Below are positions 1,253 through 43,243 of a stretch of DNA of 45,394 nucleotides, one piece after another (the first letter of the stretch is position 1; each line of letters opens with the position of its first letter). The stretch is from a virus (taxonomy: Duplodnaviria > Caudoviricetes). The stretch covers positions 1 through 45,394 of the IMG/VR virus record IMGVR_UViG_3300043391_000337. One strand, written 5' to 3'. The position numbers and the translations under genes are program-made. The notes beneath the pieces are model-generated. The model was not told the DNA's origin. It saw only the letters and a list, made by a program, of their open reading frames with translations, and ran no database searches.

Positions 1253-2836
1253 TTAAACTGGTATACTAGGTGAATTTAAATTAATAAAAGAACGATCAAA
1301 ATTTCCAGGTTCCATAGTTACAATAGTTTGACTATTCTGATTCACCACTTGATTAGATGGTGCAACAACCACATTACTATTATTACTAGACTTATCTTTA
1401 CCAGCAATATTCTCAACACTCATTCTATTTAATTCACCACCTGTAATTGGTGCGATTTGACGTTGTAATATACTTTGTCTAGGCATCATTAATTGTTCAT
1501 TATCTGTAGCGCCTGGCGTTGATGGTAATATATTAGGGCCGGCTGGTTGACTTTTAGCTCCTATTTGTTTTGCAATAGATTCATTTGAATAATCACCAAC
1601 TGCATCTTTTTCTAATCCTTTTGTTGAGGTCTGTAATTGATTTTCTTCTTCATTTTTATTAGAAATGTCTGTTTCACCTTCTTTTTTCTTTTTAAACCAA
1701 TTCATTGGGTTTAAATTAGATAACTTATCTGCTGCCCAAGCTACGGCCGCAACTAATGCTATAATTCCTATTATGATAGCAATAATTGGGGCAGCTAATA
1801 ATAAAAATTCTATAATAACTGGCACCATTGCAATTGCCATTTTAGCAAAGTTAGCTGCACTTGTTAATAGACCTTTACCTAGATTTCCAAGACCACTCAT
1901 AAGACCACTTAATGATTGTTTAATACCTTTACCCATCTGACCCAATTCTTGTCCAAATAGTTTAAATTGATCTACTGCTGCACCGACTGTTTGTGATAGA
2001 GGTCCTTGTATCTTTTCATCAGGTTTAAGACCTGCTTTTTCTTTTCTTTCTGATAATATCTTTTGATCTTCTGTTAATTTCTTTTCATCATTAACCAATT
2101 GTTGTCTTTTCTTTAAATCCTCACCATCACTCTTTTTAAATTGTTTAATATCTCTTTGTAATTCTTTTTCTCTAAACTGTAATTCTTTTTCTTGTTTTAA
2201 TATAGATTGTTTTTCTAATTTCTCTTGTGCAAATGTTCTAATCTCCAATTGCATATTCTTTTCATCAACATAAGTATTGATACCACGCTCTCTTAATATA
2301 TCTCTTTCTTTAACTAATTCAGAAACCTTTTCTTCATGCACTCTTTTACGTTCTTCTTTTTCATTCTTTTTCTTTTCTGCCATTTCAAATAACTTATCAA
2401 TACCATCACCTAAGTCTTTACTAAACGATTTTAAATCTATGCCTAATTTGTTTTGTAATGTATCTATGGTCTTAAATGCCTGTTCATTATCTTCTTCTTT
2501 ATTAGATTGTAGTAATTGAACAACTTGTTTTAATTCAGATTCAATAGGTAAGAACTCTTTAACAGTGGCTTGAGTTAAATTAGTTACTTTACCTGTAACG
2601 GCCTGTAGTATAGATTTACCTAATTCAACTATTTGTTGTGAACTGATATTTTGTTTTTGAGATTCAGCAACTTGTTTAATTGCTTGAGTAACTTCAACAT
2701 TGTATTTTGGTAATGTTTGTTTTACTTCAGCAACATCTTCTTGTATAGTTTCTTCTTTGGCCTGCATTTTGTCAATTTTTTTAACAAAATTGCTACCTAA
2801 AGCTAACTTATCTGAATCGTCTATAAAATCTGCCAT
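1253..2836 (-). CDS. putative tail tape measure protein (gp29-like)
   Basis: Long K/E/Q coiled-coil, Gly/Ala-rich amphipathic stretch, hydrophobic segment LLLAAPIIAIIIGIIALVAAVAWAA, N/Q-rich C-terminus; downstream of gp26/gp51. Confidence 0.6.
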   Translation of the reverse strand: MADFIDDSDKLALGSNFVKKIDKMQAKEETIQEDVAEVKQTLPKYNVEVTQAIKQVAESQKQNISSQQIVELGKSILQAVTGKVTNLTQATVKEFLPIESELKQVVQLLQSNKEEDNEQAFKTIDTLQNKLGIDLKSFSKDLGDGIDKLFEMAEKKKNEKEERKRVHEEKVSELVKERDILRERGINTYVDEKNMQLEIRTFAQEKLEKQSILKQEKELQFREKELQRDIKQFKKSDGEDLKKRQQLVNDEKKLTEDQKILSERKEKAGLKPDEKIQGPLSQTVGAAVDQFKLFGQELGQMGKGIKQSLSGLMSGLGNLGKGLLTSAANFAKMAIAMVPVIIEFLLLAAPIIAIIIGIIALVAAVAWAADKLSNLNPMNWFKKKKEGETDISNKNEEENQLQTSTKGLEKDAVGDYSNESIAKQIGAKSQPAGPNILPSTPGATDNEQLMMPRQSILQRQIAPITGGELNRMSVENIAGKDKSSNNSNVVVAPSNQVVNQNSQTIVTMEPGNFDRSFINLNSPSIPV

Positions 2837-2840
2837 TTAA

Positions 2841-3134
2841 TTATTTTGTTTCTTCTTGTTGTGCTTGTAGTTTTTTATCTTCTATCTTCTCTTGTGTTCT
2901 ACCATAAGCAGATATACCTAATACAGCACCCATACAAATATGGAAGAATCCAGCACCTTGTAAAGTTAATGGTTGCCATTGTGTAAATACAATATTTTTA
3001 AGATATGTTGCTTGTGCTATATTCCACAGTATAGGAAATAGAATAAAATCAAATGCACATACTGATAAGTATAACCAACCCATAGCAGGACGCCATTTAG
3101 TATTAAAACCTGTTTCTTTATTTTGTGTACTCAT
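2841..3134 (-). CDS. small membrane protein, 3TM holin-like (WRP motif)
   Basis: KWRPAMGWLY...FDFILFP and hydrophobic helices ending LGISAYGRTQEK, resembling the GTA 3TM holin family. Confidence 0.55.
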   Translation of the reverse strand: MSTQNKETGFNTKWRPAMGWLYLSVCAFDFILFPILWNIAQATYLKNIVFTQWQPLTLQGAGFFHICMGAVLGISAYGRTQEKIEDKKLQAQQEETK

Positions 3135-3325
3135 TACCTGTTTTTCTCCCTGTTTCTCTCGTTTTCTTCTTTAATGTAATTAACCAACAGTGATATGTAT
3201 ATATCACGTTCCCATGGCAACATATTTTCAATTTCAGTTAATGAATATTTATGATGTTGCATCAGCGCAAAATTGGTTTCGAAGTATGCCTCTAACGTGT
3301 TATGGGAGAGGCTAATTCGAAAAAA
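3134..3325 (-). CDS. gp51: gp51-like baseplate hub assembly protein; frame probably entered by -1 frameshift from gp26 (only ATG at 3262)
   Basis: Frame reads FFRISLSHNTLEAYFETNFALMQHHKYSLTEIENMLPWERDIYISLLVNYIKEENERNREKNR; LMQHHKYSLTEIENM.PWER is the gp51-like signature; TAATG overlap with the next gene; not in the ORF track. Confidence 0.8.
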   Translation of the reverse strand, partial: FFRISLSHNTLEAYFETNFALMQHHKYSLTEIENMLPWERDIYISLLVNYIKEENERNREKNR

Positions 3326-4029
3326 TCTGCAATACCTGTTAACGTAACCTTACTTGTTACATTAGTTTTAGGGTTAGTTACTTCAATCTCATGTTTCAAT
3401 CTAGGCATAGTTTCAAAGAACTTTTTGATTTTACTGAATGAATCTTGTGGCATCATTTCAACAAATTCTTTTAATTCAGTTTTTGTACTATCTTTTGACG
3501 GATATATCTTTTCACCTTCAAAGATATGATCTATGCAATCAACTAACACATTGAATACTTGTTCTATTTCAAGTTTTTCTATACCTTTACCCACATCATA
3601 ATTTTTTAATGTAGGGTACTTTAATACTAAACCTAAATTTCTTTTTTCATCAACAATAATTTTATTAGTATGATCATCATCAACATGTACCTGAACTTTA
3701 GTTAAATCAACTTCAGCTTCAGCATAAGTTTTACCATCATCAGGACATATTGTTTTAAATTTAGCAATTTCAGATACAGATTTTGCACGAATATTTAAAA
3801 AAATATATTCAACATCAAATATTGGTAATTGATCTACTTTTAATACATCAAACGTACATGCTTTAATAACTTCTTTTAAAGCTTCAACCATTTGTTTATT
3901 ATCACCTGTTTCAAGTGCAATATACAATATTTTTTCTTCTTTAACAAGAAACGGTCTATATTTTATTTTTATATCTTGTGATGGTAACGTCAATTCATAC
4001 GTAGGCACATCAACTCTTGGTAACGCCAT
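3292..4029 (-). CDS. gp26: baseplate hub assembly protein gp26
   Basis: MALP..PTYELTLPS, YRPFLVKEEK, FDVEYIFLNIRAKSV, KFFETMP, LTGIADFF. Confidence 0.9.
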   Translation of the reverse strand: MALPRVDVPTYELTLPSQDIKIKYRPFLVKEEKILYIALETGDNKQMVEALKEVIKACTFDVLKVDQLPIFDVEYIFLNIRAKSVSEIAKFKTICPDDGKTYAEAEVDLTKVQVHVDDDHTNKIIVDEKRNLGLVLKYPTLKNYDVGKGIEKLEIEQVFNVLVDCIDHIFEGEKIYPSKDSTKTELKEFVEMMPQDSFSKIKKFFETMPRLKHEIEVTNPKTNVTSKVTLTGIADFFELASPITR

Positions 4030-4046
4030 AATTAACTCCTTTTATA

Positions 4047-5036
4047 TTATAAATTAAGTGGTGGTAAATTGCCGAATGGAGGGAATACTCTACCACCTGT
4101 AATACCCCCAATTGGAATACGTCTTTTCAGACCTTCTAATACATCTTGACCAACACGTCTTAATTCTGGTGGTAATTTATTTAGAATGCCTCCAAAAGCA
4201 CCATATCCACTTTTAACTGTAACATCTCTAAATGCTGGATTACCTACACCAATTTCACCTGCTTTATCTAAGAAGTAGTTAATCCAATATCTAAATGTAA
4301 ATGTAACTGTAAATGTTTGTACAGCATTTGCTTCGTAATTATATTCAACCGGTCCAATAATTTTAGGAAACACATCATATAATTGAACAGCATAAGTTAT
4401 GTCATCTCTTTCATTACGACTAGCAAATTGACCTAATTGATAAATGTTAATATCAGAAACGTAATTGTCATAAAAATTATAATTATTAGATTGATTACTA
4501 TAAATGGCCGATTGCCATAATTCAAAATATGATCTCTCTCTTAAAAACTTATCACAATAGAATGTTGCTGTAATATCTGCTGACTTATGATCAAAAGCAA
4601 TCTTGTATGCTGGACCATGATGTCTAATTTCTTTTGTTTGTATATCTCTATCAGGCATAGCAATAGCAGAACAAAATGCTCTCACTCTACGACCATTAGA
4701 ATTATGTACAGCTCTCATTTCGTCCGGTGATTTAAAAGATGCCATCTGTTCAGCGCTTTGAGGAGACATACCTTGTTGAGTAATATCTTCAATACCTAAT
4801 AAGTTTGCTCCACCACCTTTTGGTAAATTAAACTCAACATAAAATCTGGCCTTACGAGCAAATCCTTCTGCCTCATTAACATAAGATTGAAAACGGCCAA
4901 TAGTAGTTTCTGGATTGCCACCTGCCTTTTGTCTAAAACGTGGATCTGATTCAACGTTGTCTAATGATCTATCTCTAGGAATACCTAATCTGATATCAAA
5001 ACCACCAATACGAACACCACCTCGTAGTATTGCCAT
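4047..5036 (-). CDS. gp54: tail tube initiator gp54 / gp19-like tube-fold protein
   Basis: ARFYVEF, CSAIAMP, ITATFYCD, YFELWQ, YDNYVSDINIYQL, LYDVFP, FTVTFTFRYW. Confidence 0.7.
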   Translation of the reverse strand: MAILRGGVRIGGFDIRLGIPRDRSLDNVESDPRFRQKAGGNPETTIGRFQSYVNEAEGFARKARFYVEFNLPKGGGANLLGIEDITQQGMSPQSAEQMASFKSPDEMRAVHNSNGRRVRAFCSAIAMPDRDIQTKEIRHHGPAYKIAFDHKSADITATFYCDKFLRERSYFELWQSAIYSNQSNNYNFYDNYVSDINIYQLGQFASRNERDDITYAVQLYDVFPKIIGPVEYNYEANAVQTFTVTFTFRYWINYFLDKAGEIGVGNPAFRDVTVKSGYGAFGGILNKLPPELRRVGQDVLEGLKRRIPIGGITGGRVFPPFGNLPPLNL

Positions 5037-9754: not shown

Positions 9755-10630
9755 ATGAATAACGATAATTATATGGGCCTAGGAGGTTTTCACTGGTTCA
9801 TCGGAGTTGTTGAGGATAGAAACGATCCTCTCAAAGTCGGCCGTTTAAAAGTAAGAATCATCGGAGCACACACATCCGATAAAACAATTCTGCCTACTGA
9901 AGATTTATTCTGGTCGTCTGTAATGTTACCAATTACGGCCAGTGGTATATCTGGTATTGGCCAGTCGGCGACCGGACTACTCGAAGGAAGTTGGGTGTTT
10001 GGTTTCTTTCGTGATGGTGAAAGAAGTCAAGATGCGGTTATATTGGGTAGTTTACCAGGAAGGCCAACACAGGGAGCAAATAGCTCACAGGGCTTTTTTG
10101 ATCCTAATGGAGTTTATCCTCGTTATATAAATGAACCAGATACCAATCGTCTGGCCGTTAACAATGGTGAGAAACCACATCCAAGTTCGGCCATAGATGC
10201 GGCCAATAGAATTACGGATATACAGGCCTATAACTCGGAATGGTCGCAACCAGCGAGCACCTATGCGGCCGTTTATCCTTTTAACCAAGTATACGAATCA
10301 GAGTCAGGCCATATAGTAGAGTTTGATGATACAGAAGGAGCGGAGAGAATACACATCCGCCATCGATCCGGTACTCGCTTTGAAATCACGGCCAACGGCG
10401 ACCAACTGGCCATTACCAAAGGCGACAACTATATAATCATAGATGGTAATAATAAGGTCTATATAGCAGGCTCATCCGATATCACAGTAAATGGAAACGC
10501 AAACATCAAAGCAGGTGGAGATGTAGGTGTGCTGGCCAGTAATATAGACATAACGGCCACAGGCAATATCAACATGGATGCAGGTGGTAACGTGGTAATC
10601 ACAGGCACACGAATTGATCTAAACCCTTAG
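9755..10630 (+). CDS. gp5: baseplate hub/spike protein gp5 (OB-fold plus beta-helix, no lysozyme domain)
   Basis: WFIGVVEDRNDPLKVGRLKVRI, GSWVFGFFRDG, YPFNQVYESESGH.VEFDDTEGAERI, short beta-helix repeats. Confidence 0.9.
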   Translation: MNNDNYMGLGGFHWFIGVVEDRNDPLKVGRLKVRIIGAHTSDKTILPTEDLFWSSVMLPITASGISGIGQSATGLLEGSWVFGFFRDGERSQDAVILGSLPGRPTQGANSSQGFFDPNGVYPRYINEPDTNRLAVNNGEKPHPSSAIDAANRITDIQAYNSEWSQPASTYAAVYPFNQVYESESGHIVEFDDTEGAERIHIRHRSGTRFEITANGDQLAITKGDNYIIIDGNNKVYIAGSSDITVNGNANIKAGGDVGVLASNIDITATGNINMDAGGNVVITGTRIDLNP

Positions 10631-15939: not shown

Positions 15940-16410
15940 ATGACAAAAACAACTAAAATTAAATGGGTTATCGCCCATGAGCCTTTAAAGCTTTTTATAA
16001 GAGCTGCTAAAGATTTTCAAGATTTTGTTAATGCTGCTCAATCTGTTGAAAAGATTGAAGTAGAAGTTATGACATTATCAGAGTATAGTAACAAATATAA
16101 CAATGGCGTACAAGTTACTAAACACGATTTACTTGATCTTATGGAACAAGGTAAAATCGAAATGTCTCAAATGTACACAACTTGGTTAGCTGAGAAGTAT
16201 GACCATGATTTATTAGCATTAGAAATGCCATACATATTTAAAGATCACAAACATGCTGAAAGAGTATTAGAAGGTAAAGTTGGTGAAACTTTATTAGAAA
16301 AAATTACATCTTTCGGTAACGTTAGAGGTCTAGCGTTCACTTATTCAGGTGGATTTAGAAATATTGTAACTAATAAAAAAGAAAGCAATTTAGATACTTT
16401 AAAGAAGTAA
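15940..16410 (+). CDS. TRAP DctP-like substrate-binding protein, N-terminal half
   Basis: GKIEM, LEMPYIFKDHKHAERVLEG.VG, GGFRNIVTNK; no signal peptide. Confidence 0.8.
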   Translation: MTKTTKIKWVIAHEPLKLFIRAAKDFQDFVNAAQSVEKIEVEVMTLSEYSNKYNNGVQVTKHDLLDLMEQGKIEMSQMYTTWLAEKYDHDLLALEMPYIFKDHKHAERVLEGKVGETLLEKITSFGNVRGLAFTYSGGFRNIVTNKKESNLDTLKK

Positions 16411-16429
16411 TTTAAATTACTATTATAAA

Positions 16430-16924
16430 ATGAAATTAAGAGCAAATCGTAATCCAGTTGCGAAAGCAACTTTGAAAGCTCTGAAAGGTTCTGATAAAGA
16501 TATTCACGTTTGTGAAATCGAAGAACTTACAGATCATGTTGCTACCGGAAAATGTGATGGTGGCGAAAGTAACTATAGCAGAGTCTATCCTTTAAAACAA
16601 AATGAAGTGATAGAATCTGTTGTAGATACTGAACATAGTTTATTTCTTACATCAATGATTATGCGTGAGAATTTTTGGAAAACATTAAGTCCAGAAGTTC
16701 AAAAGGTAATCAAAGATGCTGCCATTAAAGCTGGTAGACGAGAAAGACAAACTACAATTGAAGATGGTGAAGAAGCTAAAGAGATGCTTATTAAAGAAGG
16801 TAAAACAATACACACTTTAACACCAGAAGAAAAACAAGATTTTATTGATAAAACTAAGGTGGTTTATGAGGAGTTTGAAAAAACTTTTACACCAGGTTTA
16901 ATAAACGATATAAAGAACGGTTAA
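16430..16924 (+). CDS. TRAP DctP-like substrate-binding protein, C-terminal half
   Basis: MKLR, GKCDGGES, TEHS, FWKTLSPEVQKVIKDAA, LTPEEK. Confidence 0.8.
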   Translation: MKLRANRNPVAKATLKALKGSDKDIHVCEIEELTDHVATGKCDGGESNYSRVYPLKQNEVIESVVDTEHSLFLTSMIMRENFWKTLSPEVQKVIKDAAIKAGRRERQTTIEDGEEAKEMLIKEGKTIHTLTPEEKQDFIDKTKVVYEEFEKTFTPGLINDIKNG

Positions 16925-16925
16925 T

Positions 16926-16943
16926 TATAAATAGGTATAAATA
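16926..16943 (+). promoter_or_regulatory. tandem late promoters
   Basis: TATAAATA at 16926-16933 and 16936-16943. Confidence 0.65.
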
Positions 16944-16979
16944 TGGTAACAATTACTATAAAAAAGAGGAGAGATTTAA

Positions 16980-18032
16980 ATGTCTAACAAAAAAACTTTA
17001 CGTTGGGTTATAGCACATCACCCAGTTTCATTATTTGAAAGAACAGCAAAATTGTTCAAACAAGAATTAGAAAAAGAGTGCCCAAATCAATTTAATTTGG
17101 AAATTTATACACCTGGAACTTATGATAATAAATTCAAAAACCATCCAGAATTTAAAATTGTACCACCAGATGTTAATGGTTTAGAAGAAAGACCTTCTTC
17201 TGTAAAATCACTTAATGGTGAAGAAGTACAATTAAAAAAACAAAAACTTTGGTCAGAAGCTAAAGGAAGATGGACGTCTTTTTTCAATGCTCTTAGAGAC
17301 GGAGATTTTGAAATCAGTCAAACACAAGTTGGTATCGTAGGTGGTTTCTTAGATAGAAATTATCACGCTATTGATTTGCCTTTCTTATTTAATGGCCACG
17401 ATCATGTATCTAAAGTATTAGATAACGAAATCGGCGATTATATGTCTGACAATTTAGCAAGAAAAACTGGAGTTAGAGGTTTAGCTTTTACATACTCTGG
17501 AGGTTATAGAGTAATTGGTGCTAAAAAAGGAATAACAGCTCTAAGCGATTTATCAGCATTAAAATTAGTAACTCACACTGCTCACAGTGATGAATTATTT
17601 AATAATGTTGGTGCTAAAACTCTTAGAAAAGATAAAGCAACTATTGAAGATGTTGCTGATCTTAATAAAGATGAAAACGGAGCAATTGAAACAACTTATT
17701 TAAGATTTGCTGGTAAAAACGTGTTAAAGACACAGCACAGTATGTTTACTACTACAATCTTAACAGGTGATAAATTCTGGAATACATTAACATCAGAACA
17801 ACAAGCAGCTTTCAAAAGAATTGCTAAAGTTGTTGCTAAAGAGGAACGTAAATGGTCTCTACAAGATTCGGCTGCTTACGAAGCTAATGCTCAAGCAAAT
17901 GGTGTTACTATTACAGAAATCAATAAATCTGATCTTGCAAAATTACAAGAATCAGCTAAGAAAGTTTATTCTAATTTAGATAACATTGGAATTGACAAAA
18001 AATTAGTTGACAGAATTATTGCTGCTGCTTAA
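16980..18032 (+). CDS. full-length DctP-like substrate-binding protein without signal peptide
   Basis: ALRDGDFEI, IDLPFLF, GLAFTYSGGYRVI, FWNTLTSEQQ; paralogue of the split pair (WVIAH.P, RGLAFTYSGG); GAGGAG RBS. Confidence 0.82.
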   Translation: MSNKKTLRWVIAHHPVSLFERTAKLFKQELEKECPNQFNLEIYTPGTYDNKFKNHPEFKIVPPDVNGLEERPSSVKSLNGEEVQLKKQKLWSEAKGRWTSFFNALRDGDFEISQTQVGIVGGFLDRNYHAIDLPFLFNGHDHVSKVLDNEIGDYMSDNLARKTGVRGLAFTYSGGYRVIGAKKGITALSDLSALKLVTHTAHSDELFNNVGAKTLRKDKATIEDVADLNKDENGAIETTYLRFAGKNVLKTQHSMFTTTILTGDKFWNTLTSEQQAAFKRIAKVVAKEERKWSLQDSAAYEANAQANGVTITEINKSDLAKLQESAKKVYSNLDNIGIDKKLVDRIIAAA

Positions 18033-19529: not shown

Positions 19530-22265
19530 ATGACCATAGTCTATCGAAATACAAAAGGAGCCGCTCTTACTTACAATGAGATGGACGAGAATTTACGTGA
19601 TCTACGACAAGACACAACAATTGATAGAGTATTAGCAAATGGTAACACAACTACAAAAAGTTTAAATCTAGGTTCTTTAAATGCAACTACTATTACACTT
19701 AATGGTCAACCTTTAGCAGGATTAGGTTATACAGGATCAAGAGGTGATGCAGGTTATACAGGAAGTTTAGGTTACACAGGATCTACAGGCACTGGTTACA
19801 CAGGTTCAGCAGGCAGTTTAGGTTACACAGGTTCACAAGGTGATCAAGGACCGGCAGGTGGTTATACAGGTTCACAAGGTGATATCGGTTACACAGGCTC
19901 AGCATCAACTGTAGTTGGTTATACAGGAAGTTCAGGTTATGCCGGTTCACAAGGTGTAATTGGTTATACTGGATCAAAAGGCGATGAAGGTAATCAAGGC
20001 ATACAAGGGTTTACAGGAAGTTTAGGTTACACAGGTTCACAAGGCGTACAAGGTTATACAGGAAGTTTAGGTTACACAGGTTCACAAGGCGTACAAGGTT
20101 ATACAGGAAGTTTAGGTTACACAGGTTCACAAGGTTATACAGGAAGTTTAGGTTACACAGGTTCACAAGGCGTACAAGGTTATACAGGAAGTTTAGGTTA
20201 CACAGGTTCACAAGGTTATACAGGAAGTTTAGGTTACACAGGTTCACAAGGACCTCAAGGTGAACAAGGCGCAACTGGTTACATTGGTTCGCAAGGTACT
20301 GCAGGAGACAAATATAAAACAACATCACAAACTAGTTTAAATTTATCTTCTTATGCTTTAAATGATACTATATCTTTAACAACTTCTGAATTTTCTTTAA
20401 GTTTTACATCACAACAGACAGTTATAATTGCTGAAGCTCCATCATTAGGAAATCCATCACCAACAAATCATTTACATGCTCAAATTTTATCATTTGATAT
20501 TAGTAATGGTAATATGGTGGGTGTTGTTACAAACAACGGTAATGTACAAAATAGTATTTTAAGTTCTTGGATAGTTAACATAGATGGAGCCATTGGTGTA
20601 CAAGGTTATACAGGTTCGAGAGGTTATAATGGTTCACAAGGTTATACAGGATCAAAAGGTGATACAGGTTATGTTGGTTCACAAGGTATACAAGGAGATT
20701 TTGGTTACACAGGTTCTCAAGGTATAATAGGTTATACAGGCTCACAAGGTTATACTGGAAGTTTAGGTTATACCGGCTCACAAGGTATTCAAGGTGTACA
20801 AGGTTACACCGGATCAAAAGGTGATCAAGGTATTCAAGGCACAGCAGGATTTACAGGCAGTCAAGGAGTAGGTTATACAGGATCTGCTGGAGTTGGTTAC
20901 GTAGGTTCAAAAGGAGATTTGGGGTATACTGGTTCTGCTGGAACAAATGGTTACACAGGTTCAAAAGGTGATCAAGGTCCTGCAGGAGGTTATACAGGCT
21001 CTCAAGGAGAAGCGGGAAATACTTTTTTAACATATTCTAATAATACTTTTACATTATCAAGTACAGGTTCTCAAACAATTATTATAGGAATAGGTTTAGC
21101 ATATTCTGTAGGACAGAATATTATTCTTTCAGCGGATTCAAATAATATTCAATATGGAATGGTAACATCTTATAATGATGGTAATGGATTTTTCACATTT
21201 GATAAAATAAGTTATATTGGTACAGGAAGTTATGATAGTTGGACAATTAATTTAGCTGGACCTGCAGGAATAAATGGTTTTGCAGGCAGTAGAGGATATA
21301 CAGGATCATCTGGTGCTGGCTATACTGGTTCTGCCGGTTCAACAGGTTATGTAGGATCAAAAGGAGATTTAGGTTATTCAGGATCAAAAGGCGATCAAGG
21401 CACAACAGGTTACACTGGATCAAAAGGCGAACAAGGTATTTTGGGTTACACTGGCTCGGCTTCAACTGTAGTTGGTTACACAGGAAGTTTAGGTTACACA
21501 GGTTCATCTGGTTACACCGGTTCACAAGGAGATCAGGGTCCTAGAGGAGGAAACGGATTTACAGGCTCGTTAGGTTATACAGGTTCGAGAGGTTATAATG
21601 GTTCACAAGGTTATACAGGATCTGATGGTGCTGGTTATACAGGCAGTCAAGGTATTCAAGGATATCAAGGTAACATAGGTTACACAGGATCAACAGGATA
21701 TACCGGCTCTGCTTCAACAGTAATTGGTTATACAGGAAGTTTAGGTTACACAGGATCACAAGGCGCTGGATTTACAGGTTCAAGAGGAGAAACTGGATTT
21801 GTAGGTTCACAAGGTCCTGCAGGAGGTTATACAGGATCTAAAGGTGATACAGGTTACACCGGTTCAGGTGGAACAGCAAGTGGATTACAATCAAGAACAA
21901 CTGCAAGTGTTACTACAAGTAGTTTGCCTAATAATGGAGTTGTTACTGCTAATATAACTGGTTCTAAATCTTATATGTTATTAAAAGTTACAACAAATGT
22001 TGCTTCTTGGATTAGAATTTATACTGACGATTCATCAAGAACGGCAGATGTAAGTAGAAGTCAATATACAGATCCAACACCTGGTTCTGGAGTACTTGCA
22101 GAAGTTATAACTTCAGGAAGTCAAACAGTAATATTAACCCCCGCTGTATTGGGTTATAATAATGAAAATCCTGTAACAACAGATGTGCCTATCAGAGTAA
22201 CAAATTTAAGTGGTAGTGCATCTACAGTTACCGTAACATTGACATACATACAATTAGAGTCGTAA
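19530..22265 (+). CDS. collagen-like fibre protein 1 (GYTGS repeats)
   Basis: N-terminal [13 protein letters not shown] anchor motif, three Gly-X-Y blocks, two inserted beta-domains, C-terminal globular domain. Confidence 0.85.
20011..20250 (+). repeat. exact DNA tandem repeat within the collagen-like gene (45/36-bp units)
   Basis: Unit TACAGGAAGTTTAGGTTACACAGGTTCACAAGG(CGTACAAGG)TTA repeated about six times with identical synonymous positions. Confidence 0.85.
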
Positions 22266-37913: not shown

Positions 37914-38255
37914 ATGGCAGCTATAGCAAATTTAACAATAGACGCAGGTGCAACTTTCTCCAGTGATGTTGATGTTTTAACTGATGATGGCAGTGTATTC
38001 AGTTTAGTAGGATATACGGCTGAAGCAAAAATGACTAAAGGATATTCCGAAACATATCCTAGAGTTTATTTTGATATTACTGTTTATGAAAATGATGGTA
38101 TCGTAAGTATAAGTTTAGATCCTGCTGACACCATTCAACTAGAAGAAGGCCGTTGGGTTTATGATGTTCACATAACAGAAACAGCAACTGGCGATGTAAC
38201 ACGTGTTGTTGAAGGTATGATTACTGTGTTTCCTTCTGTTTCAGGTATAGTTTAA
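37914..38255 (+). CDS. small virion structural protein (BppU-N/Ig-like)
   Basis: ANLTIDAGATF, L.GYTAEA.M, GRWVYDV, TRVVEG.ITV.P. Confidence 0.7.
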   Translation: MAAIANLTIDAGATFSSDVDVLTDDGSVFSLVGYTAEAKMTKGYSETYPRVYFDITVYENDGIVSISLDPADTIQLEEGRWVYDVHITETATGDVTRVVEGMITVFPSVSGIV

Positions 38256-39466
38256 GATTCGTATTTAAATATAGCTTTATTATTGCCAGTTTTAATTTCT
38301 TTAAAACCGTTTTCTATTAAGTACTCACCTATTTTTTTAATATCATACGTAGTAACATCATCAAATATAAAAACACTATCATTCGCTTTTCTAAGCATAA
38401 AAAATTCAACTTCTTCCATAACACTAATTGTATCGTGTGGCCCGTCAAAATGCACCAAATCGTATTCGGTTATTAATTTTTTAACTTCATTATATACAGG
38501 ATAACCATCTCCGTATCTTTTGAAAAATTCTGTATCTTCTAAACAAACAAGATGAAATTCAGGATAATCTTTTGTAAAGTTTAATAGTGCTTCTTTTTTC
38601 ATATCGTTTGTGTAATCACATTTAGTTTGTGGTGCTTCATCTGAATAAGCATAAACAATATTTCCATAAGGGTCAATACCTAAATGATTTAGTTTTACTT
38701 GTGGATGATATTTTCTAAATGAATCTATAATAATCTTACTTCCCATTCCAAGTCTTACGCCAATTTCAACCGTAGCTCCTGTAGGATTTTTTAATAACTT
38801 AACTGCTTCTTCTAAAGATTCATATTCATGGCTATCGCCATTAAATGTTGCAGGTTTTTCCTTATTGATAACATCTGTAATTTTAAATGTATTAGCACCA
38901 ATATGATCACAAAGCACTGTTGTATCAGCGAATATTTTAAATCCTCTAATCTTTGCTTTTCTACAAAAATCTACATCTTCTGATACTGTATTTTTATGAT
39001 CTAAAGCTGAATGGTAAACATATTGAGGATAACCTATAGTTTTAAAAACTTCCGATTTAATTAGAACACAGCCCATACCAGCTGCTTCTATTTCTAAGAA
39101 AGGAACGTTTTTAATATTTTCATAAGGTATATTTGAACAACCACCAAATTGGTTCTTCTCATATATTTCTATAACATGTCTATCGTGGTGTCTTTGTCTA
39201 TATAAACCCGATACCATATCTACATTATGACTTAAAAGTTTTTTAAGAGTATCTGGTGCAAATACAATATCACTATCTACAGAAAACAAATAGTCGTAAT
39301 GAGTTGCCCAATGAGCGATAAGATTTCTTATTTGATCTACTTGATAACCATAAAAAAATTGAAATTGGGTTTTATAGCCCTCAGGAACTTCAAGATTATA
39401 TATTGCTCTCATTGTTTCTGGTTCAATATATTTGTTTGTAGGTATTCCTATTAATATTGTTTTCAT
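38252..39466 (-). CDS. GT2-like glycosyltransferase fused to a class I SAM methyltransferase
   Basis: N-terminal SVDSD (DxD), GMGCVLI, SEDVDFC; C-terminal VEIGVRLG, HFDGPH, FIFDD. Confidence 0.85.
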   Translation of the reverse strand: MKTILIGIPTNKYIEPETMRAIYNLEVPEGYKTQFQFFYGYQVDQIRNLIAHWATHYDYLFSVDSDIVFAPDTLKKLLSHNVDMVSGLYRQRHHDRHVIEIYEKNQFGGCSNIPYENIKNVPFLEIEAAGMGCVLIKSEVFKTIGYPQYVYHSALDHKNTVSEDVDFCRKAKIRGFKIFADTTVLCDHIGANTFKITDVINKEKPATFNGDSHEYESLEEAVKLLKNPTGATVEIGVRLGMGSKIIIDSFRKYHPQVKLNHLGIDPYGNIVYAYSDEAPQTKCDYTNDMKKEALLNFTKDYPEFHLVCLEDTEFFKRYGDGYPVYNEVKKLITEYDLVHFDGPHDTISVMEEVEFFMLRKANDSVFIFDDVTTYDIKKIGEYLIENGFKEIKTGNNKAIFKYES

Positions 39467-41493
39467 TGTGTTAATATCCTATTTGCATTTTTAGTTTGTT
39501 CTGTTGAATTTACTTTATAATCATTTAATGAACTCATATCATTATAATTATAAAATATATCTTGTACTACTTTAATTTTGTTTGGATCTGCTTTTTCTAT
39601 TACTGTATAGAATATAGAACCATCACCACCTGCTTTGTACCAATTTCCTTTTTCATCTTTAAAATTTCCATCATTTACATTATGCAATAGATATGCTTTA
39701 AATGTTCTTAAATGAGTATAAGGCATATTCCAATTAAATTTATATTGTCTATATTTCTTTTCTTTTTTAGTTTCTTGTAAATAATTTTGAGATATCAAAG
39801 GTATTTTATCTACCATTGAATAACATGAACCATAAGTAAATTCAGTTGTACCATCATAAAGATTATTGTAAAAATGAAATATTTGATTGTCGTTTACTAG
39901 AGAATCGTCTCCGTCTAAGAACATTACAATATTGTCCATTTGAGAATATTTAATTATAGCTTCTATTTGATTTCTCACTGCACCTTTATTTTCTGTATTT
40001 TTAATTACGATTACTTTATCACTTTCATATCTTTTAGCAATATCATAAGTATTGTCTGTAGAACAATCATCAATAACAATCATTAAGTAATTATCATAAT
40101 CTTGTGTAATAACAGACTTAATACATGTTTCAATATATTGACTGGCATTATATGCAGGTGTAACTATAATCATTTTTTGTTGAGTGTTTCTAGGTATATA
40201 ATTTTCTTCATAATTTTCAAATCTTCTACCAAACACAGTTTTAACTCTTGCATTAATATAACTTACTTGTTTATATTCTTCTTTTGAAAGGTATGCGCCT
40301 AATTTTTTATAGATATGTTGTTTCCATTGTAATGCAACAGAATCCCAACCTACAATATCTTTTATAATATTACAAGCATACATTTTTTGTTGATGTAGAT
40401 ATCTATCAACATTTGCTCTTAAAACCATATTTACAAATTTATCTTCTTGTTGCTTTTTGTCGATAAATCTAAAAAGACTATTTGGTTCAATTGCATAATC
40501 CATTAAATAGCAGGCCTGTTCAACGGCCGTTTCTTCTAATGCACCAAAACGAGTTGTAATTAAAGGAGTATTGTAAGCAATAGATTCCAACGTTGAAATA
40601 CCAAATGTTTCAGGAAATGCACCAGGAAATAACATGAAACTTGCTTTGGCCATTAATTCTGCTATTTCTGATTGTTTAATAATACCAGTAAACTCTACAT
40701 CTAGTTTTTTATATTTTTCATCAGCAACCAATTCTCTCCATTTTTTTTCTTGTTCATCGGGAGCAGCATTTTCTCTAAATCTATAATATCCACCAATTAC
40801 TTTTAATTTAGCTTGAGGTATATTTTGTTTAATTCTTTCCCACATATTCTCAACCAGAGGCAACATGCCTTTTGTAACAGAAGCATTGTAAACATATAGA
40901 TAAGGATCTTTTTTTCTTATATCTACTTCGTTTTTATAATATATAATACCGTTACGTGTCATAAAAACTTTTTTCTTTAATACTTCAAAGTTTCTTTTTC
41001 TTCCATGATCACAATTTGTAACATAAGACGTATGAAAATCTGAAAGTGTAAATATTTCATCTAAATCACCATGTACCAGCATATCTTCTAATATATGATC
41101 ACCATACATTGAAAATGTATCGTGCATCCACATGGCTTTTAGTTTAGCATTAGCTTTTATTTTAGAATATCTTTGAGGTTTAAAACGTTCAAATTGACTA
41201 TATAACTGTTCGGGTACAAAAGGTATTACTGTTCTGGAAGATATAACAACATCAAAATTAAAATCGTTTTTATAATCTAATATAGTATGATCAATATATT
41301 GAACATTATCAAATATTCCTTCTTTAGATTCTTTATCTATGCAGTTATTAAATACTGTTACTTTGAAATTCTTTTTAGCTAGTTCTTTTGCAAGTAAAAT
41401 AACGGCTGATTCTGATCCACCTAGACCTCTTTTATTTAAGGTATCACCATCATAGGTCAATCCAATAATGTCAATAATCGCTATAGAAATCAT
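39463..41493 (-). CDS. GT4 (GT-B) plus GT2 (GT-A) double glycosyltransferase
   Basis: GLGGSE, ETFGISTLE (EX7E); then VTPAYN, IDDCSTD, FLDGDD; ATGA overlap with the next gene. Confidence 0.9.
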   Translation of the reverse strand: MISIAIIDIIGLTYDGDTLNKRGLGGSESAVILLAKELAKKNFKVTVFNNCIDKESKEGIFDNVQYIDHTILDYKNDFNFDVVISSRTVIPFVPEQLYSQFERFKPQRYSKIKANAKLKAMWMHDTFSMYGDHILEDMLVHGDLDEIFTLSDFHTSYVTNCDHGRKRNFEVLKKKVFMTRNGIIYYKNEVDIRKKDPYLYVYNASVTKGMLPLVENMWERIKQNIPQAKLKVIGGYYRFRENAAPDEQEKKWRELVADEKYKKLDVEFTGIIKQSEIAELMAKASFMLFPGAFPETFGISTLESIAYNTPLITTRFGALEETAVEQACYLMDYAIEPNSLFRFIDKKQQEDKFVNMVLRANVDRYLHQQKMYACNIIKDIVGWDSVALQWKQHIYKKLGAYLSKEEYKQVSYINARVKTVFGRRFENYEENYIPRNTQQKMIIVTPAYNASQYIETCIKSVITQDYDNYLMIVIDDCSTDNTYDIAKRYESDKVIVIKNTENKGAVRNQIEAIIKYSQMDNIVMFLDGDDSLVNDNQIFHFYNNLYDGTTEFTYGSCYSMVDKIPLISQNYLQETKKEKKYRQYKFNWNMPYTHLRTFKAYLLHNVNDGNFKDEKGNWYKAGGDGSIFYTVIEKADPNKIKVVQDIFYNYNDMSSLNDYKVNSTEQTKNANRILTQ

Positions 41494-41590: not shown

Positions 41591-43243
41591 ATGGCCATAA
41601 TAAAAGGACCCACACAACAAGTAAAAGTAACACTTCCTTCAAGAGCTAGTGGATCAATAGGTTACACAGGATCACAAGGTTATACAGGATCTGGTGGAAC
41701 TGGAAATGGTTACACAGGTTCACAAGGATATTCAGGTAGTTTAGGTTACACAGGTTCACAAGGACAAATAGGTTATACAGGATCTGGTGGAACTGGAAAC
41801 GGCTATACAGGTTCTCAAGGTTCAACAGGATTTACAGGAAGTTTAGGTTACACAGGATCGGCTGGAGTTGGTTATACAGGATCAAAAGGTACTGATGGAA
41901 CAATTGGTAGAGACGGGTACACAGGTTCTTTAGGATTTACCGGTTCAGCAGGAGTTGGTTACACAGGCTCCACAGGCACTGGTTACACAGGTTCACAAGG
42001 TACTATTGGTTATACTGGATCAGCAGGCGCTGCTAATACAGGAAATATTACATTTAACACAAATACAATTTCAGCAACTTCAGGAAATATTATACTTGAT
42101 CCTCCAGGAGCAGGAGTTGTAGATGTTAATACAAGTAGAATTATAAACGTAACAGATCCTTCTTCTGATCAAGATGCTGCTACAAAAGCGTATGTTGATT
42201 CTCAGGTGTCTGCTGTTGGTGATGGTTACACAGGTTCACAAGGTATAGTTGGTTACACAGGATCAAAAGGCGATCAAGGAAATTTAGGATACACAGGATC
42301 GGCTTCAACAGTTGCTGGTTATACAGGATCAGCCGGTGCTGGTTATACAGGTTCACAAGGAAATTTAGGTTATACTGGATCAATAGGTACTCCAGGTTCA
42401 ACAGGTTATTCTGGGTCAGTTGGTTACACAGGTTCAAAAGGCCAATTACAAATCACAACTTCAACAACTCCTCCAGGAAGTCCTGATTACGGAGATATTT
42501 GGATTGATTCTGCTACAGGTATACAATATTTTTATATTACTGATGGAGATTCAAATCAGTGGGTTGAAGATTCAAATGTGGGTGTAAGAGGGCCTATAGG
42601 TTTTACAGGTTCACAAGGAGAATCAGGAATAGCAAATTTAGGAAGAAAATTTAGTTGGTCTGCTCCAGCTGATGGAACACCTACAACAGGTGGAACAACA
42701 ACAGGTACAATAGCAGGTTCTAATGCAACTTTTTCTAACACTTCAATTGGTGTTGTATTAACAGATACAGGCGCAACTCAAAATGGTAGAGTTGTTTGGA
42801 ATTTAACAGATATAGATTTTACTAAAGATTTAAGTTTAGATATTTCTTTTTATCAATCTGGTGCTGACGGCATTTCTTTTGGTATAGGAGGTACAAATGC
42901 TTTTTCAAATTCTCAACCTTATACAGTTACTAATAATAGTTTATCGTTTTGGTATAAAACAAATACAAACAAAACACAATTTTATAAAAATGGTACAGCC
43001 AATGGAAGTGAAACTGATTATATAGCTGGATTGACTTATGAAGATTCTTGGGTTTCATTAAAATTAGTATTAAGGACAATTTCATCTACTCGATATGCTT
43101 TTGTATATCATCAAGGTGTTTTAATAAATTCATTAGATATTACGTCTTGGTCGCCTACAGGAAAATATATATTTGTAGGAGCTTGGTCAGGTGCAGCTGT
43201 AGGATCGCATGCTGTTAATGCTGTTTCTATTGATTATATTTAA
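41591..43243 (+). CDS. collagen-like fibre protein 2 with lectin-like C-terminal domain
   Basis: GYTGS blocks, DAATKAYVD, GDIWIDS module, C-terminal GRVVW...GADGISF resembling the L-type lectin fold. Confidence 0.8.
   Translation: MAIIKGPTQQVKVTLPSRASGSIGYTGSQGYTGSGGTGNGYTGSQGYSGSLGYTGSQGQIGYTGSGGTGNGYTGSQGSTGFTGSLGYTGSAGVGYTGSKGTDGTIGRDGYTGSLGFTGSAGVGYTGSTGTGYTGSQGTIGYTGSAGAANTGNITFNTNTISATSGNIILDPPGAGVVDVNTSRIINVTDPSSDQDAATKAYVDSQVSAVGDGYTGSQGIVGYTGSKGDQGNLGYTGSASTVAGYTGSAGAGYTGSQGNLGYTGSIGTPGSTGYSGSVGYTGSKGQLQITTSTTPPGSPDYGDIWIDSATGIQYFYITDGDSNQWVEDSNVGVRGPIGFTGSQGESGIANLGRKFSWSAPADGTPTTGGTTTGTIAGSNATFSNTSIGVVLTDTGATQNGRVVWNLTDIDFTKDLSLDISFYQSGADGISFGIGGTNAFSNSQPYTVTNNSLSFWYKTNTNKTQFYKNGTANGSETDYIAGLTYEDSWVSLKLVLRTISSTRYAFVYHQGVLINSLDITSWSPTGKYIFVGAWSGAAVGSHAVNAVSIDYI

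Follow-up and report, generated by a model that had tools for sequence, protein, structure and literature searches.

The region of interest lies on the minus strand of a 45,394-nucleotide viral sequence (the whole stretch that we analysed, below called the window), whose source DNA was found mostly in freshwater metagenomes. Here a gene with a strong Shine-Dalgarno (SD) sequence (3292..4029, minus strand) encodes a 245-aa protein of the T4 gp26 family, as judged by its matches to PF12322 T4_baseplate (208.5 bits, cutoff 24.5) and phrog_150; it is a putative short tail-assembly chaperone (TAC-N, the equivalent of lambda G). The end of this ORF reads GCA GAT TTT TTC GAA and contains, in frame at D235-F236-F237, the heptamer U UUU UUC of the slippery X XXY YYZ type (3319..3325, minus strand), with the TAG stop codon (3294-3292) following 8 codons past it. 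The open stretch of the -1 frame spans 3349 to 3134, a TAA closing its 5' side 8 codons before the heptamer, and the 63 codons running from the heptamer (3134..3325, minus strand) encode a gp51 C-terminal domain (putative TAC-C, the equivalent of lambda T). The earliest ATG, GTG or TTG in this frame is the ATG at 3262, where gene callers begin its product, within the second predicted helix. An initial annotation made from the letters alone had pointed out both the in-frame heptamer, eight codons before the gp26 stop, and the -1 frame that is closed by a TAA on its 5' side and start-less until 3262, and the sequence bears out both; the gp51-like identity it gave this frame agrees with our matches to phrog_634 (gp51-like; E 6.7e-30), which begin at residue 7 of 71, well 5' of ATG 3262, and to Pfam Gp51_C (Atlas features). 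Slipping by one base at the heptamer would give a predicted long product of 298 aa next to the short product of 245 aa.

Across the 31 window genes (12,576 codons) we counted 97 in-frame X XXY YYN heptamers, two of them T TTT TTY, and only the heptamer in the gp26-like gene has a -1 frame that stays open for at least 50 codons past the stop. Contigs of two other DNA samples span the site gap-free, so the heptamer is not an assembly slip. Our search of the 45-kb window for a separate full-length gp51 gene gave none, though the rest of the genome may have one; the two-gene arrangement of T4 is not what we found here, the end of gp26 being slippery.

For a comparison across relatives we gathered the loci of 34 close IMG/VR matches, of the best 80 of 594 matches by similarity and of eight cultured phages hand-picked from the spread of 634 records; with the window this came to 123 loci, and removal of seven incomplete and ten duplicate junctions left 106 distinct junctions. 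In every one of these 106 junctions T TTT TTY stands in frame and the second reading frame lies at -1 to the first. The junctions range from 22 to 100% protein identity and include the eight cultured phages, and because of how the loci were chosen this strict conservation applies to the sampled loci only. The alignment of relatives was the check that the initial annotation had proposed, and its outcome favours the proposal. The -1 frame is open for 58–71 codons in every junction, and while the zero-frame stop lies anywhere from 0 to 8 codons past the FF pair, the register of the -1 domain is constant throughout the 106. The codon before FF is GAT in 59 junctions, AGT in 31, TCT in 15 and AAT in one; all of these codons end in T, so that the T stays the same for three different residues (Asp, Ser and Asn). 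The first Phe codon is TTT in all 106 and the second is TTC in 92. When set against the codon usage of each gene itself, these choices gave a log10 P of -11.5 (27 representatives below 60% identity, with rows treated as independent), and an equally conserved FF motif in the same gene, F204-F205, served as a control: there the heptamer occurs in 3 of 89 sequences and the codon is TTC in 52 and TTT in 37. The pattern of constraint also changes phase at the heptamer. Mean information by codon position is 0.40, 0.73 and 1.15 bits upstream (zero frame) and 0.78, 1.18 and 0.41 bits from +7 on (-1 frame), the least-conserved position moving from the zero-frame wobble to the -1-frame wobble, and in 20 distinct eight-codon overlaps conservation is 0.65 in the -1 frame versus 0.48 in the zero frame.

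These junctions bear directly on the idea that the frame change is a homopolymer sequencing or assembly error, or the trace of a decayed fused gene. Five of the 30 longer database matches are full in-frame fusions of 279–301 aa, as such an idea would have it; however, these fusions are single-member clusters from contigs no longer than about 2 kb, and off-frame residues precede FF in several of them; they stand against 106/106 junctions out of frame, cultured phages included, and against the two other samples that bridge the site. We consider an artefact effectively refuted by the conservation, and we did not count the fused database proteins as support for a frameshift.

The same T run could also act on RNA polymerase, which by transcriptional slippage would add one U and, through normal translation of the altered message, give the same long product. 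The signal for such slippage is a T homopolymer, runs of T7 or T8 are present in 14 of the 106 junctions, and slippage is an established bacterial alternative to frameshifting in the account of one review (PMC5009743). Yet 92 of the 106 runs end at six T with TTC, though 78% of the Phe codons in these genes are TTT (934/1198), and since a TTC ending shortens the T run but keeps the re-pairing of tRNA-Phe, this preference counts against transcriptional slippage, as does the fit between ribosomal -1 shifting and an SD-like site 9–10 nt ahead of the heptamer. The contigs from RNA libraries extend only 18 nt past the heptamer, too short a reach to bear on U insertion. We regard transcriptional slippage as very unlikely.

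The annotations all treat the gp51-like frame differently, as a separate small gene, which would be initiated either from ATG 3262 or a non-canonical codon, or through re-initiation past the gp26 stop, with the heptamer incidental. In many cyanophage-type loci an ATG does lie near the gp26 stop, and about half of the window genes are without an SD. The lack of one at 3262 therefore says little, and we did not accept it as evidence for a frameshift. The first start codon of the -1 frame lies upstream of the heptamer in one junction, at codons 1–10 in 38, at 11–19 in 10, at 20–21 in 43 and at codon 28 or later in 14; 57 of the 106 junctions thus have no start before codon 20, and 14 of those have none before codon 28. 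What the initial annotation had named for relatives as speaking against it, variable frame relations or ordinary upstream starts, was not seen, although start codons upstream of the heptamer or no more than 10 codons after it are present in 39/106, some of them overlapping the gp26 stop. Because of these early starts, which in the 39 phages speak against frameshifting as the sole route, re-initiation could also occur there. P-SSM2, YB07 and D482 have a -1-frame ATG overlapping or directly adjoining the gp26 stop (TGATG, TAATG and TAAGTATG), so that a free C-terminal domain could arise there by re-initiation besides frameshifting. A separate gene leaves the invariant synonymous choices and the phase switch at the heptamer unexplained. 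It also fails to account for the conservation of 21 residues ahead of the ATG and for the absence of this ATG from 14 loci; and it sits badly with a gap-free match to T4 gp51 and with the predicted structure of the C-terminal domain, which has four helices, the second of them (11–24) cut by ATG 3262. A tblastn search with the -1 frame matched 571 phage records, and in 59 of the 60 matches listed the match ran from residue 1 onward. We give a separate gene with an incidental heptamer very little weight. As a side observation, in two members of the Straboviridae, Aeromonas phage Ah1 and Cronobacter phage LPCS28, we found the heptamer and a 59–60-codon frame with the -1 domain unannotated.

A programmed frameshift of the dnaX or IS type is stimulated by an internal SD and a 3' RNA structure, and both have candidate counterparts in the window: a weak SD-like site 9 nt before the heptamer (3334..3339, minus strand; -3.1 kcal/mol) and a predicted hairpin 6 nt past it (3288..3312, minus strand), with a 6-bp core pairing 3312-3307 with 3293-3288. 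According to the review, an internal SD 9–14 nt upstream stimulates -1 shifting (PMC5009743). Among the relatives, the mean energy of anti-SD pairing 18–9 nt upstream is -4.74 kcal/mol, whereas none of 50 in-frame upstream positions goes beyond -1.9, and synonymous resampling did as well in 0/1000 at three redundancy levels; 35 of 66 loci have a four-out-of-five match to GGAGG that ends 9–10 nt ahead of the heptamer. The site is weak in the window phage and stronger in many relatives, and a conserved Gly accounts for part of it; the enrichment of GAG over GAA within it was not significant (p 0.07, 27 representatives). Folding z-scores peak 10 nt after the start of the heptamer (mean -2.07, 43 loci) and are about 0 in the gene body; the window hairpin scores -3.63, and across 60 sequences its six pairs are maintained in 64% of cells, with 26 double changes (2/500 shuffles). 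RNAalifold found no common structure downstream of the heptamer, and the synonymous-recoding control for structure also passes at +60 (-4.5 versus -3.2), so it overstates the significance at +9. Both stimulators are enriched over controls but non-universal, 28 of 66 loci passing neither threshold. The SD-like site and downstream hairpin are possibly an unreported part of the system, and we found no account of them in the literature searched (subscription papers lay outside its scope). Tentatively, and at somewhat below even odds, we propose that the frameshift of T4-like phages is tuned by an undescribed dnaX-style pair, an SD in a conserved Gly codon 9–10 nt before U UUU UUY and a 3' hairpin whose register depends on the clade, and that the T4 group later replaced the recoding by gene duplication.

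In T4 itself the two proteins come from two divergently transcribed genes without a slippery site, in place of the overlapping frames with a slippery site of the window. T4 gp26 ends GAG TTC TTT, and the heptamer is absent from T4 and ten other two-gene phages (0/11), although seven of them retain E-F-F. T4 gp26 (208 aa) matches the short form of the window up to its last residues, and T4 gp51 (249 aa) matches the entire predicted long form. The -1 frame of the window aligns, from its second residue, to residues 200–244 of T4 gp51, and a profile of the predicted long products matched T4 gp51 over residues 15–245, ungapped at the junction (E 2.4e-15 in a three-sequence database), with both parts contributing when compared separately (E 1.4e-8 for the N part and 6.7e-8 for the C part); against nine other gp51 proteins the profile gave E-values from 5.6e-24 to 1.1e-13, likewise in small databases. 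In an unrooted tree of 43 rows a single branch separates off gp26 (96/91), gp51 (100/100) and the frameshift-type proteins (99/97) in turn, and the gp26 and gp51 rows taken together likewise fall on one side (99/97), a grouping of sequences that is consistent with one duplication. As the tree is unrooted, the order of frameshift and duplication is left unpolarised.

For the fold of the gp26-like protein we used an AlphaFold model (pLDDT 84.9, 12 sequences). A VIA-align comparison of residues 1–95 with 48,161 chains placed 3FGX, 2OB9 and 3KLU at the top (Z 7.1, 7.0 and 6.4; the next chain 4.7), all three being phage tail-assembly chaperones according to PMC9603447. The scores are modest and apply to residues 1–95 only (rmsd about 4, 84–85 aligned residues), and as a Z below 8 can reflect a common arrangement, the weight rests on three solved chaperones leading together. 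A Foldseek search of the model against the PDB returned nothing at E 0.001, and no chaperone match was found for residues 96–245. The fourth-ranked chain, 5IR0 (Z 4.7), is an uncharacterised protein of a Vibrio cholerae PICI-like element that may have a chaperone fold too. We also considered a duplication of the chaperone domain inside gp26 and rejected it, hhalign of the two halves giving a probability of 1%. With 18 members of the C-terminal domain we found no match to a Pfam T-type (lambda T) family, Gp51_C being the only family hit, and its predicted fold matched nothing significantly in BFVD.

The neighbouring genes may be arranged as they are beside lambda-type chaperones. Upstream of the gp26-like gene lies a tail-tube-fold gene (phrog_45, gp54/gp19-like; 4047..5036, minus strand), with counterparts in 103/106 loci, and downstream lies a 527-aa tape-measure candidate (1253..2836, minus strand), an ORF of at least 400 aa being found in that place in 51 of the 52 loci with room. 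An Atlas lead of 0.93 (144/256 features) and one annotation weakly support the identity of the latter, which we treat as a lead; it had no PHROG or Pfam match, and none by tblastn against 50,697 phage records. The order given by the initial annotation (tube-fold gene, gp26, gp51, small gene, tape-measure candidate) is seen here, the tape-measure identity and the role of the tube-fold gene having weak support. The small gene encodes a 97-aa membrane protein (2841..3134, minus strand) outside the frameshift signal, with weak holin-family matches (phrog_3427, E 1.3e-5; PF11351, 24.5 bits, below the cutoff of 24.8); located between the chaperone and tape-measure candidates, it has homologues in 15/106 loci, the others having an unrelated small gene or none. 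Elsewhere in the window, three adjacent ORFs (15940-18032, plus strand) match phrog_31178 (unknown function), the first two covering profile positions 70–164 and 171–323 like a split copy beside an intact 350-aa copy. Two glycosyltransferase-like genes (38252-41493, minus strand) run counter to the tail-fibre and baseplate genes that surround them, two tail-fibre genes with collagen-like repeats encode 911 and 550 aa (19530-22265 and 41591-43243, plus strand), and the product of a gp5-like hub gene (9755-10630, plus strand) has just 291 aa, its match being to the N-terminal portion of a profile of 868 positions.

Even with a real frameshift, the products could serve in the baseplate hub, as components or as catalysts, in a way that differs from lambda G/GT. 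Gp26 and gp51 of T4 are classed as hub assembly chaperones, and some genetics puts gp26 in the hub (PMC3004832); the protein is moreover twice the size of the solved chaperones, with its chaperone match limited to residues 1–95. Yet fold and the predicted short/long architecture match G/GT, as the gene position appears to, and since T4 gp29, the tape measure, belongs to the hub as a subunit, hub and chaperone descriptions may be one. A purely hub-related role, which is not exclusive with a frameshift, seems to us unlikely.

Characteristic of a G/GT chaperone system are a frameshift product made at a few percent, the formation of spirals and absence from virions, and the slip site of lambda is G GGA AAG. 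Compared with lambda, the window has U UUU UUY as putative slip site, a short form of 245 aa with about 150 extra residues, an extension of 61 residues and an intervening small membrane gene, and the tube-fold gene beside it possibly encodes a gp54-like initiator instead of the major tube. As described in the 2016 review, lambda makes G and GT at 30:1, with G binding the tape measure and T the tube protein, and lambda gpG/gpGT, HK97 gp13 and P2 E/E+E' share a short and a long product from a low-level -1 shift near the 3' end of a gene beside the tube and tape-measure genes (PMC5009743); the N-terminal fold of HK97 gp13 resembles that of the gp26-like protein. The starting point of the initial annotation, that T4 is usually treated as lacking this frameshift, fits a statement of that review, which has the -1 shift conserved in long-tailed phages 'except T4' (PMC5009743), and is at odds with the literature of 2022. 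Vladimirov et al. 2022 is cited for T4-like phages whose TAC-N genes carry poly-T -1 signals (PMC12846349) and for some T4-like phages in which a short gene is accompanied by a fused long one (PMC10885494). A chaperone frameshift in T4-like phages appears to have been in print since 2022, with the window as another predicted example. Vladimirov, Gautam and Davidson (2022, Virology 566:9-15, PMID 34826709) reportedly identified the TAC genes of T4-like phages, which in T4 are said to be 26 and 51, and the frameshift is reportedly conserved in other T4-like groups. The TAC-N genes of that study reportedly have poly-T -1 slip sites, as is predicted for the window phage, an uncultured phage unlikely to have been included there. 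PMC11526630, PMC12671138, PMC12859696, PMC12484599 and bioRxiv 2023.03.23.533998 contributed nothing further. In the literature searched, with subscription papers outside its scope, we found no experimental test of the frameshift in T4-like chaperone genes.

Taken from comparative sequence evidence, the best explanation of this locus is, with a probability of roughly 0.88, a programmed -1 ribosomal frameshift by which one gene yields a short and a long tail-assembly chaperone. Translation would mostly terminate at the TAG at 3294 and give the 245-residue form. A smaller share of ribosomes would shift back by one base at U UUU UUC, the two tRNA-Phe on UUU and UUC re-pairing to UUU UUU, and add the gp51 C-terminal domain for a product of 298 residues; the upstream SD-like site and the downstream hairpin may aid the slip. 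The claim that gp26 and a gp26-51 fusion are the G/GT equivalents is supported by fold, synteny and collinearity with T4 gp51. By analogy to lambda G/GT, the short form would coat the tape-measure protein, the extra domain of the long form would recruit the tail tube protein, and the slip rate would set the short:long ratio; T4-type phages would make the same chaperone pair from the duplicated genes 26 and 51.

If this reading is correct, the 42–60-aa genes annotated as 'gp51 baseplate hub assembly catalyst' would be mis-called C-terminal halves of a frameshift product, annotations that occur in hundreds of cyanophage, pelagiphage, Vibrio and Rhizobium phage records, in line with the count of matching records above. 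T4-like myoviruses would then follow the chaperone logic of lambda in building their tails, a prediction that has apparently already been published.
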